Below, piece by piece: positions 8,990 through 15,389 of a DNA stretch of 29,070 bases. The notes below the pieces were generated by a model that was not told the origin of the DNA, searched no databases, and saw only the letters and a program-made list of their open reading frames with translations. The stretch lies in UHGV virus genome UHGV-1360357; one strand, 5' to 3'. Source of the stretch: a virus. Both the position numbers and the translations under genes were made by a program. The first letter of the stretch is position 1. Each line of letters begins with the position of its first letter.

Positions 8990-10936
8990 TTAAAGAATAA
9001 TTCTTTCAACCTTCCAAGTTGCAGATCTACTTCCTGAAATTCCAACTCCATTTGAATCTTTGAGAAGAATTCTAAATGATGTTTCTGTTACCAAATCATA
9101 CGTTGCATTTATTGCTGCGCCATCTCCTATCGATATTGAGATAAAATCAGGCACAACTCCAAGTCCGTGAGTTATTATTTGTCCATTTGAATAAACCCCA
9201 GTTCCTATTTTAGTCGTTGCATACCCGGCATTGTTTGCAAGGACAACATTAACCGAATTTGCTCCTAATTTAGCAATCTTCCTATCAGATGAAATCTCTG
9301 TAGATTGTATTGCATTATTTGAAATAACTGCATCTTTTATAGCCCTGAAATCTCCAGGTGTTCCTGATACAGCATTAACAAGTATTGCATACTGCATACT
9401 TCTATCACTTCTTTTATTGCCGAAAGCATTACCGCAAATTGTTGTCCCGGTAAATCCAGATGCTCCCGTGTTATCAAGAAGAATTCCGCACCTATATGTA
9501 TTTGATGTATCAGAAGGCAAACCTATACCTCTTATGGAATTATTGGATACTATATTATTATCTGGCTTGACATTTGCATTATTGCAGTAAATGCGAATTC
9601 CAACATCACAAAATGCATCTAATACATTATCAGATATAACATTACCCGCTCCCCACACATCAATACCCATAAACGAATCAGCACCATCTCCAAAAAATTT
9701 ATTTTGAGTAACTATTGTTCCGCTACCCCTAATCAATATAGCAGGCCTTGGAATGCTTGAAGTCTTTTTGCTATCATTGTAGCCATGATTATCGTTTATA
9801 TGAGATTCCCCCCCCGCACTATCTATGCAGCAATTACACGAATCTATTATATTTTTATTTATCCTTACATAGACAGAATCGTGTTTTATACCTGTAATAA
9901 AATTTGATATGGAATTTGATACAAAACTAGTTGCCTTACATGGCAATGAAACGCCATGTATAGCGTCCTTAGACGCTCCTATGGCAACAAAATGTATCCC
10001 TGTAACAATTGCTGGGTTCTCATTAGATGATGTGTCACCTATGGTAATAGCAAAAGAATTCTCATCTTCAGGACCATCAATTGTTAATATCGTTTGTGGC
10101 GTATATCCTTGAGATATTTGCGATCCATTTCCTGAACCAAACCCTCTCATACTTACAAAAGATGGGATTCTTAGTTTTTCTGTTACTCTACAGTTGCCCC
10201 CCCAAAAAAATTCCTCTTTAACATGGGCAGCGGCCAGCATGATTGGAATTGTATCATCTTTAACTCCATCAAGCGTCGCTCCATAATTTCTAAGGTCATT
10301 GGTTTCATACCCATTTAAATAACCAATACATCTCCATCCTGTTGAGGTATATCTGGCAAATTTATCATCTGGGGGAACAGTAAAAGGAGGAACTGTCATT
10401 TCTCCTCCAGTTATTTCATTTTCATATACCCAAAACAACCCATCATAATCTTTGATTGCGCATCGGTTGTCTCGAATGATATTTTGCTTGTCATAGTTCC
10501 CACAATATGAAAAACCAGTTGCTAATTTCTGTAGATTTGTTCCTGATGCTGAGTTTATTAATGATGCGCCATTTTCGCTAGTTAATACATTATTTAGAGG
10601 GTCAGGATCATACTTCAGCACATTAGGAAAATAGAACTGCTGCGCACCGTACGCATCATAAACAGCCATAGAATGGCCTTGCACGGTTACGAATTTGGCA
10701 ATCTGTCCGTTATATGCAGGATACCCGCCAGCGTTAATGATGATTGGCTGTGCAACAGGAACGTGAGAACCGTCTTCATTCTCTACATAAACCTGAATCT
10801 GGTTTTCAGGATTTACCGGGTCAGTGTCAATTTTTCCGATATAAATTTTGCCATTGGCAACCGCTTTAAAAGAACGCGCCATAGTGAAGAGTTGCGAAGG
10901 CATGCTTACCACAACATTTGCGGTGATATCTGTCAT
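8990..10936 (-). CDS. tailspike protein (P22 gp9 family; conserved head-binding domain, divergent receptor-binding beta-helix)
   Basis: 648 aa; first ~115 residues ([58 protein letters not shown]...) match the P22/HK620-type tailspike head-binding domain; the rest is Asn/Gly/Ser-rich with beta-helix-like repeats but unrelated to the P22 endorhamnosidase domain. Confidence 0.9.
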
Positions 10937-10993
10937 TTAATTTGCTCCAGATACAAGGAATCGCCGCAGCATGGCTACGGTGAATTTTGGGCA

Positions 10994-11020
10994 TAAAAAA
11001 ACCCAGCCGAAGCTGGGTCG
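10994..11020 (-). terminator. intrinsic terminator downstream of ant
   Basis: On the - strand CCCAGC-ttcg-GCTGGG followed by TTTTTTTAT, between the ant stop and the tailspike RBS. Confidence 0.6.
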
Positions 11021-11036
11021 TTGCGTTGGTTATCTG

Positions 11037-11993
11037 TCAGTAGTTATGTACTGAAGGAGGTAATTCTTTATTCTTAAGTCTCATCCATGCGGAAAGATTC
11101 GTTGGTCCGTCTGGCTCATTGATATCAACATCTCGTGTGTGATTGATTAAAACGTCTCTCGCCATATCGATAATACGGGAGAACTCATAACCGCAGTCAT
11201 GACATCTGCCGGAATAGTTCGATTGAATTTGTTTTAGCGCCGGATACAATTCGCGGAATAATGCCTGTGAGCGGTTGGCATAATCCCATAACCATACAAG
11301 GCTGTTTGCTTCTTTTGCAGAAAGCTCGTCGGTTTTCTTCTCTTGTTTGCCGATAAATTCACCTTCAAGCACTACCCTGTGGATGTACTCTACGGCCAGC
11401 GGGATTTGTTCAATTGAAAGTTCATCAATGCTGTCAATGCCAAAACGCTGATGAACCATATTGTATGCATCGTCATAGCGAAGTCCTTTCTTTCCTACCA
11501 GCATGTTTACTGCATCGCGTAGCGGTGTGCGTTCAGCTACTGAAGTTTTACCGCCAATAGCCTTCCTCTCTTGTGTGGCAGTAACTATTGCGTCATATGC
11601 GCGGATAACCTTCAGCGCAAATGCTGCGCTAATCCACATGGCGTAGGAGTAAACAAGCTCCTTGCACACGTATGTTCCACCATATCTACCTTTCTTAGAA
11701 ATGACGGGATTCTTATTCTGCATATCCGCAGAATTAAAAATTTCATTAATCAATTCAATAGTTTCATTTCTACGCATGAAGAAAGCTGGCTGATGTTTTT
11801 CCTCCTTTCCAGACGCTACATGAAGGTCATTAAGCGAGTAACGACCCTCTGAATCCATATGAATCTTGACGTCAGAAATGATGATGCTATTAGTGCAATT
11901 TACAGTTGACTTTGCTAAGCTTGACATATCAATAATACCTCGTAAGTTTTGTTGATACCGAAGCCCTGACTGTTCCCGCAGTTGGGGCTTCAC
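11037..11993 (-). CDS. ant: KilA-N domain antirepressor-like protein at the ant position
   Basis: 318 aa; N-terminal KilA-N-like motif (...[13 protein letters not shown] ... [23 protein letters not shown]); located downstream of arc and upstream of the tailspike as P22 ant is; the symbol is by position, orthology to P22 Ant unverified. Confidence 0.6.
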
Positions 11994-12211
11994 TGTTTTT
12001 GTAAGTCACTGTAGCTATAAAGCCACTGACCACTCATTTTTGATTTGATTGACTCTACTGAGTCACGGCAAGGAATGATTCCGCCTGACATCATTCTGAT
12101 CTCCGTAAATTCACCACTCCTTATCGATTCAATGCCATCAATGTTAACTAAAGATTTACCTCTACCAAGTGCATTCTCATAGCCAATCTCATCAACCTCA
12201 ATAAATCTCAT
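11990..12211 (-). CDS. hypothetical protein (73 aa) inserted between arc and ant
   Basis: ATGA overlaps at both ends (with the arc stop and the ant start) indicate translational coupling; no recognisable domain. Confidence 0.5.
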
Positions 12212-12348
12212 ACCGTTATCCCCTCTCTCTTCAAGCTGTCCATCACCCGTTTAATTACTTCTGCGCTAAATGAGCGACACTCTTCCTTTGCTTTTTCTTC
12301 AAGAATTTTTTCTAGCTTCTCTGGCATACGCAGTGTTTTTACCTTCAT
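12208..12348 (-). CDS. arc: Arc-like ribbon-helix-helix repressor (46 aa)
   Basis: Found by hand (below the 60-aa track cutoff): [46 protein letters not shown], aligning with P22 Arc (...FNLRWPREVLDLVRKVAEENGRSVNSEIYQRVMESFKKEGRIGA); GGAGG RBS. Confidence 0.7.
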   Translation of the reverse strand: MKVKTLRMPEKLEKILEEKAKEECRSFSAEVIKRVMDSLKREGITV

Positions 12349-12453
12349 TGCATCCTCCGTTGTATGTGGTACGCATACATAGTATTTAGGTACGCATTGA
12401 TAGTCAATAGATACCTACATATCCTGTGGTAAAAAATTATTCAGGATGCGCCT
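12349..12453. promoter_or_regulatory. divergent Pant/Pmnt-type promoter-operator region
   Basis: 105-bp intergenic region between divergent arc and mnt; inverted repeat TGTATG-N7-CATACA (12361-12379), direct repeats GGTACGCAT spaced 21 bp (12368, 12389), inverted repeat ATCCTG-N14-CAGGAT (12421-12446) overlapping the mnt RBS. Confidence 0.5.
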
Positions 12454-12705
12454 ATGTCTGATCGTAAGTACAAAAACCCTCAAGTGAATCTGAGGCTTCC
12501 TGTAGAGATAAAGGAACGTCTTATTGAACTGGCTGAGGCTAATTCTCGTTCATTAAATGCTGAGATGGTAGCAGCACTTGAGGCATGGACTGAAAAAAAT
12601 AAACATATTCAAGCACTAGATCTTGCAACTATAGCATCGCGGTTGATAGAGCTTGAGCATGAGGTTGAGAAGTTAAAATCTATACATGGCAACAGTGAAA
12701 AATGA
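12454..12705 (+). CDS. mnt: Mnt-like ribbon-helix-helix repressor
   Basis: 83 aa; PQVNLRLPVEIKERLIELAEANSRSLNAEMVAALEAW aligns with P22 Mnt (PHFNFRMPMEVREKLKFRAEANGRSMNSELLQIVQDAL); divergent from arc as in P22 immI. Confidence 0.75.
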   Translation: MSDRKYKNPQVNLRLPVEIKERLIELAEANSRSLNAEMVAALEAWTEKNKHIQALDLATIASRLIELEHEVEKLKSIHGNSEK

Positions 12706-13016
12706 AACGTATCGCTATTTTGTTAATATTGTTCTTCTCTACAATAGTTTTCGCCAAACCAAAATCAGATAATGGCGATCTTAAAGGCCTGCAAGAACTC
12801 ATGATAACTTCGAAATTTGCTGGCATGTGCGGCACAATCAAACAAATGGCAACATTTCAAGAATCAACAAAAATGCCTGGCGGAGATGAGTTCTTACAGC
12901 GTTTTCTGACCACAGAGCAAGCAAGACTAGGAATGAATCCACAGGAATTTCTTGAAGCATGCCAGAAGTCAATTTCAGCTTATACCAATTATTACAATCT
13001 AACTTCTGATAAATAA
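12702..13016 (+). CDS. secreted (signal-peptide) protein, 104 aa, unknown function
   Basis: ATGA-coupled to mnt; N-terminal signal peptide MKRIAILLILFFSTIVFA with an AxA-like cleavage site; mature part contains two Cys. Confidence 0.65.
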   Translation: MKRIAILLILFFSTIVFAKPKSDNGDLKGLQELMITSKFAGMCGTIKQMATFQESTKMPGGDEFLQRFLTTEQARLGMNPQEFLEACQKSISAYTNYYNLTSDK

Positions 13017-13041
13017 TAGAAAGGATTTTATAAATAACTTT

Positions 13042-13527
13042 ATGAAAAAATCACTATTAATTGTCCCGCTTCTGCTGGCTGGATGCGCAAAAGTAAGTGA
13101 CTACCAAGCAAGTTGCGAACAACGCTATCCAAAGCTTAGTGATATGGCTAATTGCCTTGATGCCAGCGTGAAGAACGACTCACGCATGGCATCAGCACCA
13201 ACACCTAAGCTGTATGTCCTTGCTGCGAAGATGCTCGGGCAAGGTGTCGATCAAGGCAAGATAAGTGACGCACAGGCAAGACTTGAGCTTCAGAATCTTT
13301 ATGTTCAATTACAAAGCCAAGAACAAGCCCAACAAATAGCACAAAGCCAAGCATTCCAGCAGGCTTTATTGAATTATCAGGCTGTAAACACAATGCAAGC
13401 GATCGAGCAAAAAGCGCGCCAGCCTGTTATAACTCAACCTTACCCAACACGCGTTGACACATATACAAACTGCAATTCAGGTTTTGGAAACACGGTAACA
13501 TGCAACAGTAGCAGTAATATCAGGTAG
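13042..13527 (+). CDS. lipoprotein (lipobox LLAGC, +2 Ala), 161 aa, Gln-rich
   Basis: MKKSLLIVPLLLAGC lipoprotein signal; residue after the Cys is Ala (not Asp), consistent with outer-membrane sorting; Gln-rich helical middle, Cys/Asn-rich C-terminus. The RBS is weak or distant. Confidence 0.65.
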   Translation: MKKSLLIVPLLLAGCAKVSDYQASCEQRYPKLSDMANCLDASVKNDSRMASAPTPKLYVLAAKMLGQGVDQGKISDAQARLELQNLYVQLQSQEQAQQIAQSQAFQQALLNYQAVNTMQAIEQKARQPVITQPYPTRVDTYTNCNSGFGNTVTCNSSSNIR

Positions 13528-13541
13528 TTATATCTTATCTT

Positions 13542-15389
13542 TTATTGCTGTTCTGCTGTAATTTGGCTTGAAAGTATAGGGCGTATCGCATTTGCAGCAT
13601 TATTTAGCGCTCTTTCATAGGCTGGTGTTCCTGCTTTGGTGTTTGCCAAACGTAAGAGAGCATTCCTTGCTGCTTTGGACTCATACAAGCGCATCATTGC
13701 ACCGAAACCAGCCTCAAGCCCCATTGATACGCCAAGAGTCGCAGTTGCGCCAATCGTCCTTATCCTGTTGGCTTGCGATTGCCCCGTCTGAGTTACTACA
13801 TTTGCGGTGTCTGACCTTGCTGTTTGCTGCAGAACTTCATGAAGAGCATCAAGTTCTTTCATGTGCTTTCCAGAAAAAATAGTGTTGTAAATTTCACCGC
13901 CTGACTGAGATTTCAGCTTATTAACTTCAGTGATGAACTTGGCTGGAGAGTCACCGGCCTTTTCCGCTATTTTGCTGACGTAAGCTGCACGCATAGCATC
14001 TTTCCCTTTATCATCCAGTGCGCTCCAGATTCGTTTCACGTCAGATGGTTTTCTGCTTAATACAACGGTATTTATAAGTTCAGGACTGGCTTCACTGCTT
14101 GCCTTGTTGAGTTTGTTAGCAATGTTTTTATTAAGCACCTTATTATAAACGTTTGCATAATCGGAATTTGCTTTAAGGTATTTTGCTGCGTCTGATGCAC
14201 CGAGGTTTTTAGCAACTGCGTTACGAAGGTCTTTTGACATTGCATTCTCTACCATATTGGTAGCTGCTTTTGCCTGGTTGGGGAAGACCATAGCATCTCC
14301 CTGAACATTAGATCTAAATGCTGTTCTGTGCTGACGCAAGAGATCAAACGTAACATCCAAATCAGTTGCAGGGTTTGCTAATTCTTCACGTAGGTTACGC
14401 AAGGATGTAAGCAGGCTTTGATTGGCAGACGTCCCAAGTCGTTCCTGTCTTGCGATCGCTGTATTCAGAGCATTCATGGTATTTGTGGTATCAACTGCGG
14501 CATTACCCATTTTATTGGTGACGTCATTGATAACAGCGCCAGCGGCATCCTTCCTCCCCCTTAACGTGGTGGTCAGAGATTTCACCACATCATCAGGGTT
14601 GTACTCACCAAAACGGTCAAAATAATTACTTACCAGCTTACTACGCGTTGCATATTGCTCCGCTCGCTTTGAGCCTGTCCCGAGCAAAGCCCCCTCGGCA
14701 TCCTGAGTAAGGCCGCGAGTGAAAGCATTTTTCGGCGGGATAACATCAGATGTCATTGGTGTCACGCCCATCGATTCTGATGTGGCAATTTTCTTCGCCA
14801 CTTCTGGCGCAATATCACCTTTTATAGCCGTTATTCCACGCCCTATTCCCTTTGCTGCGGCGGAAAGAACACCCTGAGCGGCAAGGTTAACTCCGGCATT
14901 TTTAGCTGCATTTTGTGCGAAATCGCCTTTCTGATTTGCGGCCTCTGCCAGTGATCCAATAGCCATGCTTCCTGCCGTTCCAACTCCTGGAACTAAATAC
15001 CCACCAATTGTTTCACCGGCTTGTGCGTAGGGGTCTGTCGGTCTGTCTACTGGACGATAAACATCATCCAAAACCTTGGGTCCACCAAGCCCCTGACTGA
15101 TTGCATTAATCAGACTTGCGCCACCCTGCAATACGTCAAATGGTATGTTTACCAGACCACGACCAGCCTGTTCTGCAATTTGCCCTGCACTTTGACCACC
15201 AGTGAGCCAATCGCCAGCTTGTTGCATCAATGATGGTTCTTCCCGTGTTGGTGCATTATTGTCCTGATTAACTGTTTGTTGCTGAACAGCCTGACCAGCA
15301 AAATACTCATCAATGGCGGCCCCAATATCTTCCGTGCTCGTACCATCAGGGAAGGTAAATGTCTTACCGTTTGCAGTTACTTTCATCAT
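13542..15389 (-). CDS. ejection (injection) protein, P22 gp16 homolog
   Basis: 615 aa; N-terminus (M)[32 protein letters not shown]; size and position match P22 gp16. Confidence 0.8.

Follow-up and report, generated by a model that had tools for sequence, protein, structure and literature searches.

The window (the whole stretch of 29,070 nucleotides that was analysed) is mosaic DNA of a P22-like (Lederbergvirus) phage or prophage of E. coli, and its positions 12349-12453 are the region that controls an immI-type module. The best explanation for this region, and one we consider probable, is that it serves a heterotypic immI (antirepressor-control) module as a promoter-operator for both directions, in which candidate operators for both ribbon-helix-helix (RHH) repressors would be superimposed on the two promoters. 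The original prediction of a divergent control region of Arc-family and Mnt-like genes, with operators other than those of P22, held, and the block was found to be under purifying selection; the hairpin it had proposed for mnt became doubtful. The phage switch is well known, but the variant of it seen here is uncharacterised; otherwise the module is the expected mosaic variation in a known module. A literature search for this immI variant, within the library that could be searched, returned no specific study.

The region is, as had been stated, the gap between arc and mnt, and it measures exactly 105 bp from the start codon of the arc-like gene (CAT at 12346-12348, minus strand) to the ATG of the mnt-like gene at 12454. 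On one side of it the module holds the arc-like gene (12208-12348, minus strand), which encodes a ribbon-helix-helix repressor of 46 aa starting with MKVKTLRMPE, followed by ORF73, ant and sar, while the mnt-like gene (12454-12705, plus strand), encoding 83 aa, lies on the other side. A Shine-Dalgarno sequence of arc, GGAGGA, was read at 12353-12358 (minus strand).

The ant gene (11037-11927, minus strand) encodes an antirepressor of 296 aa, identified by Pfam KilA-N and P22_AR_C and by the Emek annotation. Its start is the ATG at 11927, which is aligned with the ATG of P22 ant, and not the GTG at 11993 of the mechanically called ORF (11037-11993); the 66 nt between the two are the sar/terminator region. 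ORF73 (11990-12211, minus strand) belongs to phrog_11805, with unknown function, is annotated as orf73 in phage Emek and showed no match in a Pfam search. P22 has nothing at this position, whereas in the window ORF73 separates arc from the sar terminator, and CUS-3 has a different sequence in its place.

Two genes with unknown function (12702-13016 and 13042-13527, plus strand; phrog_19844 and phrog_6067) follow mnt in the same direction, and the N-termini of their products, as read from the sequence, resemble signal or lipoprotein leaders. They are probably prophage-expressed cargo at the position of P22 sieA. A DNA-injection gene lies beyond them, and the tailspike gene (8990-10936, minus strand) lies beyond ant.

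The immI module of P22 (Sauer et al. 1983, X01916) is likewise flanked by the DNA-injection genes and the tailspike gene, with divergent arc and mnt RHH genes ~100 bp apart, arc co-transcribed with ant, and a sar antisense RNA at the ant ribosome-binding site. It also has a dyad that covers the Pant start and a second element that touches both promoters, as described below for the window. In gene content the module of the window is that of immI (divergent arc and mnt, an antirepressor in the arc operon, and sar), but it does not have the P22 operator sequences, and its predicted promoters do not fully overlap as those of P22 do.

An antisense RNA of the sar type had been declared beyond assessment by eye. 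We searched Rfam over 10500-14000 at E up to 10, and a sar homologue on the plus strand at 11929-11994 (RF00262), outside the gap, was the sole match, with nothing detected inside 12349-12453. The match scored 61.7 bits against a gathering score of 43, covers the ant ribosome-binding site and has a terminator hairpin at its end. The RNA folds into two hairpins (-27.9 kcal/mol, z = -5.8), and its terminator hairpin, which a terminator scan also finds, aligns to the arc-ant spacer of P22. The Rfam match, the fold and the alignment to P22 therefore place an antisense layer in the module, outside the gap. By analogy with P22, the sar RNA would add antisense control over the translation of ant.

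Both flanking proteins exceed the cutoff of Pfam Arc PF03869 (20.4), with 37.0 bits for the Arc-like and 40.3 bits for the Mnt-like protein, and the closest solved relatives of these two small proteins are P22 Arc and P22 Mnt. The arc-like gene showed coding-type conservation, with 0.73, 0.78 and 0.55 at codon positions 1, 2 and 3, respectively. In the alignment of the Arc-like protein with P22 Arc, T5 corresponds to N11 and R7 to R13, and the 46-aa protein has V-T-R where P22 Arc has Q-N-R. That Q-N-R triad is present instead in the N-terminal strand of the Mnt-like protein, PQVNLRLP, which differs from the reading strand of P22 Mnt, His6-Asn8-Arg10 (PHFNFRMP).

The similarity of the Mnt-like protein to P22 Mnt, as aligned by BLAST, is confined to residues 8-39. 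PF11423 (Repressor_Mnt, the C-terminal tetramerisation domain) gave no match in it at E up to 0.01; for comparison, this domain scored 72.9 bits in P22 Mnt and 56.3 bits in the second Mnt of CUS-3. Residues 56-76 of the Mnt-like protein show a clean a/d heptad pattern (L56, I59, L63, L66, V70 and L73), and this stretch is probably an oligomerisation helix different from the tetramerisation domain of P22 Mnt. The variant protein would then carry the reading triad of Arc on a new C-terminal domain. The motif YK(N/H)PQVNLR(L/M)P is kept in every Mnt-like relative, and the Arc-like partners all have [T/S]-x-R-[M/F]-P, in the form of KVKT[LIV]RMP, SSVRFP or VSVRMP.

The arc-gap-mnt unit was identified in phage CUS-3, which is 93% identical to the window over arc, gap and mnt and differs in the genes after mnt, and in phage SEN22 (82%, from arc codon 13 onward). 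It was also present in 111 of 5,426 complete E. coli genomes (~2%), on 79 IMG/VR contigs, and in Arsenophonus, Phlomobacter, Xenorhabdus, Photorhabdus and Chimaeribacter, where the Mnt-like proteins are only 49-59% identical to that of the window. A search with the Arc-like protein added ~20 further lineages. The 69 distinct sequences over which conservation was measured have an effective number of 54 and come from Escherichia, Salmonella, Arsenophonus, Xenorhabdus, Photorhabdus and other genera, with Mnt-like proteins 49-100% identical to that of the window.

Over these 69 sequences, a core of 58 bp (12361-12418), which holds the predicted promoters and the candidate operators, had a weighted identity of 0.90, against 0.55 at codon position 3 in the neighbouring parts of mnt and arc and 0.50 in the remaining gap. 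Thus, selection on the core is as strong as on codon positions 1 and 2. CUS-3 and SEN22 each have 57 of the 58 core bases in common with the window.

A consensus scan with a threshold of 9/12 detected two candidate promoters in the gap, which the first reading of the gap had missed together with sar. The Pant-like promoter, on the minus strand, consists of a -35 TTGACT (12402-12407), a 17-bp spacer and a -10 TACTAT (12379-12384), and scored 9/12. All six positions of its -35 are at least 95% conserved, and its -10 reads TAnTAT in the family (12379-81 at 100%, 12383-84 at 95-97%, and 12382 variable). The Pmnt-like promoter, on the plus strand, has a -35 TTGATA (12397-12402), with TTG at 100% and the remaining positions at 79-97%, and, after a 17-bp spacer, a -10 TATCCT (12420-12425). 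Conservation of the latter is that of the classical TAnnnT signature, since T12420 and T12425 are at 100% and A12421 is at 94%, with 12422-24 freely variable. Apart from A12400 (79%) in TTGATA, both -35 hexamers are conserved at 95% or more; they share base 12402 and together form the palindrome ATTGATAGTCAAT.

Consensus and conservation thus point to two sigma-70 promoters placed back to back, whose -35 hexamers meet at 12402. The Pant-like promoter would read leftwards into arc-ORF73-ant and the Pmnt-like promoter rightwards into mnt. The predicted starts are at ~12372 (minus strand) and ~12432 (plus strand), so that the leaders would be ~24 and ~22 nt long, and both contain a good Shine-Dalgarno sequence. 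In P22 (X01916 annotation), Pant has its -35 at 302-307 and its -10 at 325-330, and Pmnt, on the other strand, has its -35 at 330-335 and its -10 at 307-312. Hence Pant and Pmnt of P22 overlap on the same 35 bp of opposite strands, whereas the promoters predicted here abut at their -35 hexamers.

The repeats of the gap were judged, for their significance in the single sequence, against dinucleotide shuffles. An inverted repeat, TGTATG (12361-66) and CATACA (12374-79) with 7 nt between them, is present as had been described and extends to 8-N3-8 with one mismatch; alone it is weak, as 7/8 matches were reached in 6% of the shuffles. We refer to it as dyad O1, TGTATGTG-GTA-CGCATACA (12361-12379), which spans ~-7 to +12 of the Pant-like promoter. 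The two reported copies of a direct repeat, GGTACGCAT, were recovered at a spacing of exactly 21 bp, with 16 of 21 bases identical over the whole unit, and they are the only exact copies in the 29-kb window. An exact direct repeat of at least 9 bases occurred in 2.4% of the shuffles (P=0.024).

Box 1, the first copy (12368-12376, plus strand), is located at the Pant-like start site, and box 2 (12389-12397, plus strand) in the Pant-like spacer. Another 21 bp on, in the Pmnt-like spacer, there is a degenerate third copy, GATACCTAC (box 3, 12410-12418, plus strand), whose position reads GGTACGCAC or GGTACGCA in several lineages. The strongest repeat had been overlooked: a 31-bp imperfect palindrome, TAGGTAcgcATTGAtagTCAATagaTACCTA, at 12387-12417 with its centre at 12402 (P=0.006 in shuffles, and 0.0006 for 18-nt arms). 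This is dyad O2, TAGGTAcgcATTGA-TAG-TCAATagaTACCTA, which is centred on the shared -35 hexamers and reaches both spacers.

The family as a whole keeps these symmetries. Peaks of dyad symmetry occur at two centres only, 12370 and 12402; O1 reaches 6.0/8, against at most 4.4 for other centres, and O2 reaches 10.7/16 and is nearly perfect in locus L064. Box 1 matches box 2 at 7.8/9 at an offset of +21 only, and box 2 matches box 3 at 5.5/9 at +21, the top value among the offsets tested.

Several of the best conserved bases lie outside the hexamers. These are TACG-A at 12391-96 in the Pant spacer (100%), TA at 12412-13 and A12417 in the Pmnt spacer (99-100%), and GCATAC at 12373-78, downstream of the Pant -10 (92-97%). 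As spacers and the bases downstream of a -10 need no conservation in a promoter, these positions are candidate operators beyond the hexamers. They amount to three GGTAYGCA-type boxes, with the consensus G-R-T-A-Y-S-Y-A, at 12368, 12389 and 12410, exactly 21 bp apart. We infer from this the operator function of the repeats and, more tentatively and by way of P22, which repressor would bind which site. The same bases may be read either as three direct repeats on one helical face or as the two dyads O1 and O2, two readings that the sequence does not separate.

The elements follow one another along Pant in the order O2, -10 and O1, the same order as in P22 (-35, Arc operator, -10 and Mnt operator), and O1 occupies the position of the P22 Mnt operator. 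By analogy with P22, a repressor on O1 would block only the arc/ant promoter, as expected of the Mnt-like protein in maintaining the prophage state, and the adjoining mnt promoter may thereby be relieved of competition. A repressor on O2 would shut both promoters, the role that Arc plays in P22 after infection. This assignment, Mnt to O1 and Arc to O2, could be reversed or mixed, since the Mnt-like protein has the Q-N-R triad and TAG triplets recur at several places in the core (12380, 12387, 12401 and 12408); in P22 Arc this triad reads TAGA boxes (PMC12645479). The centre of O1 is also not fixed, as loci L060-63 have GTATGCATAC without a spacer and L066 has GGTATG-N4-CATACC, and it is therefore a poor fit to a rigid dimer site.

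Assignment of the operators by covariation with the type of Arc-like strand (KVKTLRMP, SSVRFP or VSVRMP) was attempted and rejected, as no operator position tracks the protein type. The sole consistent change in the operator region, from ATAGTA to ATATTA, is a variant of the -10 and is seen in L070 as well, whose strand is of the KVKTLRMP type. Among 80 loci, none pairs the Arc-like strand with a different Mnt. Natural deletions did not discriminate between the sites either: L085 keeps mnt and the right two thirds of O2, and L025 and L027 have mnt without the core.

The third inverted repeat that had been reported, ATCCTG (12421-26) and CAGGAT (12442-47), is present and overlaps the mnt Shine-Dalgarno sequence (AGGA, 12443-46), with a spacer of 15 nt and not the 14 given. 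A perfect 6-bp inverted repeat occurred in ~40% of the shuffles, and thus this repeat alone is not beyond chance. Of the explanations that compete with a bidirectional promoter-operator, the one that survives best, although we hold it to be unlikely, is that this repeat (IR3, 12421-12447, plus strand), and perhaps the first one (IR1), are RNA hairpins, with a stem between the mnt -10 and the Shine-Dalgarno sequence that throttles mnt translation on a transcript starting upstream. A folding energy of -8.5 kcal/mol (z ~-2) was obtained for the segment that runs from the mnt -10 as far as the ATG, and lineages keep the complementarity of the arms with different bases (CCATG/CATGG, CCTGTAA/TTACGGG, TCTTA/TAAGA and TACTCT/GGAGTG), with P=0.003-0.005 when the right arms are permuted among 8-10 lineages. 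Several of the changes, in CUS-3, L073 and L075, are compatible with G-U pairing on the plus strand only.

However, the left arm takes up positions 2-7 of the mnt -10 region and lies inside the invariant TAnnnT, and the Pmnt RNA should start ~6 nt after it. The arm should therefore lie upstream of the transcription start and be missing from the Pmnt transcript. As the predicted leader alone is unstructured (~0 kcal/mol), a hairpin controlling translation, as originally proposed, is not supported for the main mnt transcript. Nor is there a good promoter upstream on the plus strand; the best, TACATA-17-GATAGT (12376-12404), matches 7/12 by eye against the scan threshold of 9/12. In addition, L059, L060 and L084 have a weak stem or none, and the lineages with long leaders have hairpins elsewhere. 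Possible sources of the lineage-specific complementarity of the IR3 arms are RNA from the weak upstream promoter copy (TACATA-17-GATAGT) or read-through RNA. Other mnt -10 sequences that would put IR3 in the mRNA (TAGATA, TACCTA, TACATA and GATAGT) were rejected, as they have no invariant T at position 6 or have lost A2 in the L088-type lineages.

Somewhat less probable again is a shared array of three sites, in which the two RHH repressors, as paralogues that differ in their reading strands, compete or co-assemble on the GGTAYGCA boxes, together with a real stem between the -10 and the Shine-Dalgarno sequence on a longer mnt transcript. RHH repressors that act on arrays of short repeats are known, as with MetJ on its met-boxes, omega on its heptads, and CopG. 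In these systems short boxes in a fixed helical register are read by a two-stranded beta-sheet, and cooperative oligomers span promoter elements. The likeness has limits, as the period is 7-8 bp in those systems, while here it is 21 bp (two turns) with direct and dyad readings coexisting, and two different RHH proteins presumably share one array here, unlike in MetJ, omega and CopG. If true, a three-box array on one helix face would determine in which direction a back-to-back promoter pair is read, and such an array would be a switch geometry not described for immI.

It is still harder to see the repeats as promoter parts only, namely the abutting -35 hexamers and the ATAGTA of the -10, with no operator in the repeats that were originally listed. 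The palindrome ATTGATAGTCAAT is indeed two -35 hexamers and ATAGTA is the Pant -10, and these account for ~23 of the 58 core bases, but 12391-96, 12412-13, 12417 and 12373-78 are as conserved as the hexamers (92-100%). The conserved bases outside the hexamers also repeat in a strict 21-bp register, and the two flanking RHH genes encode invariant DNA-reading strands whose sites must be somewhere. That the repeats arose by chance in an AT-rich gap and have no function of their own can practically be dismissed. IR1 (P ~0.06) and IR3 (P ~0.4) are singly not significant in one sequence, but the 9-bp direct repeat and the 31-bp dyad are (P=0.024, and P=0.006 or lower), and the conservation of the whole block across genera, far above neutral sites, already contradicts it.

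Returning to the bidirectional promoter-operator that we prefer, its candidate sites are not those of P22. As the original prediction had it, the gap shows no resemblance to them; the P22 Arc operator ATGATAGAAGCACTCTACTAT and Mnt operator AGGTCCACGGTGGACCT are absent from the window at up to 3 mismatches, and a search of CUS-3 for the P22 Arc and Mnt operators found none. P22 has one Arc site of 21 bp and one Mnt site of 17 bp, whereas the window has three boxes phased at 21 bp with unrelated operator sequences.

The 160-odd loci that were recovered with one or the other protein nearly all combine the core, the PQVNLR strand of the Mnt-like protein and the [T/S]xR[M/F]P strand of the Arc-like protein. 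The exceptions are L085, which has mnt and part of the core, and L025 and L027, which have mnt without the core. Where the strands differ, as in the relatives L089-L091, Emek and an O157 prophage, so do the repeats. Emek, with a P22-type Arc, has ATAGTA...TACTAT, the O157 prophage has TGTGATATCACA, and an Armatimonadia MAG has GGACCACCGTGGTCC. The core is thus inherited with the DNA-reading beta-strands of both proteins, as a separate repressor-operator specificity predicts, and this pattern in the sequences argues for the distinct specificity that had been suggested.

Mosaic joints inside arc, at ~12254 and ~12308, show the same. Emek is 97% identical to the window up to 12254 and then has a P22-type Arc N-terminus and operators, and the SEN22-type arcs join at ~12308 and share only codons 1-13 with the window. 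Thus, arc codons 1-13, the gap and mnt move as one unit. At the mosaic joints the reading strand always stays with the operator.

In the Armatimonadia MAG, which belongs to a distant phylum (JBDKRC010000165, L089 ~1560-1650), three copies of GGACCACCGTGGTCC lie between divergent RHH genes, and they resemble the P22 Mnt operator GGTCCACGGTGGACC.

Textbook accounts of how beta-sheet repressors read DNA, and of a switch made from overlapping promoters, use P22 Arc and Mnt as models. The variant described here would be a natural second solution, with other operator words and a different, predicted promoter geometry. Its 58-bp core, strongly conserved from E. coli to Photorhabdus, is a compact substrate for the specificity rules of RHH proteins.

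The 'ant moron' of phages CUS-3 and SEN22 is the same variant as in the window, sequenced but not analysed. A comparative paper from 2008 (PMC2629481) described arc as apparently lacking in CUS-3 and inferred that the control of ant differs there. We found that CUS-3 does carry a 46-aa arc, unannotated, in the 'bsq2 boundary sequence' (L001 3725-3865, minus strand, which is CP000711 6759-6899). The variant would thereby explain the control of ant in CUS-3-type phages, which the literature had left open.

CUS-3 also has a second, P22-type mnt downstream of the window-type mnt (L001 3971-4500 for the two), with no P22 Mnt operator within 6.7 kb. A contig from IMG/VR (IMGVR_UViG_2541047931_000005, L025 1495-2536) has a third immI type (strand GIRIP), followed by a window-type Mnt without its own core and then by a P22-type Mnt. 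Prophages thus line up, in one direction of transcription, Mnt-type repressors that differ in specificity, and these stacked arrays suggest trans-immunity against foreign ant operons.
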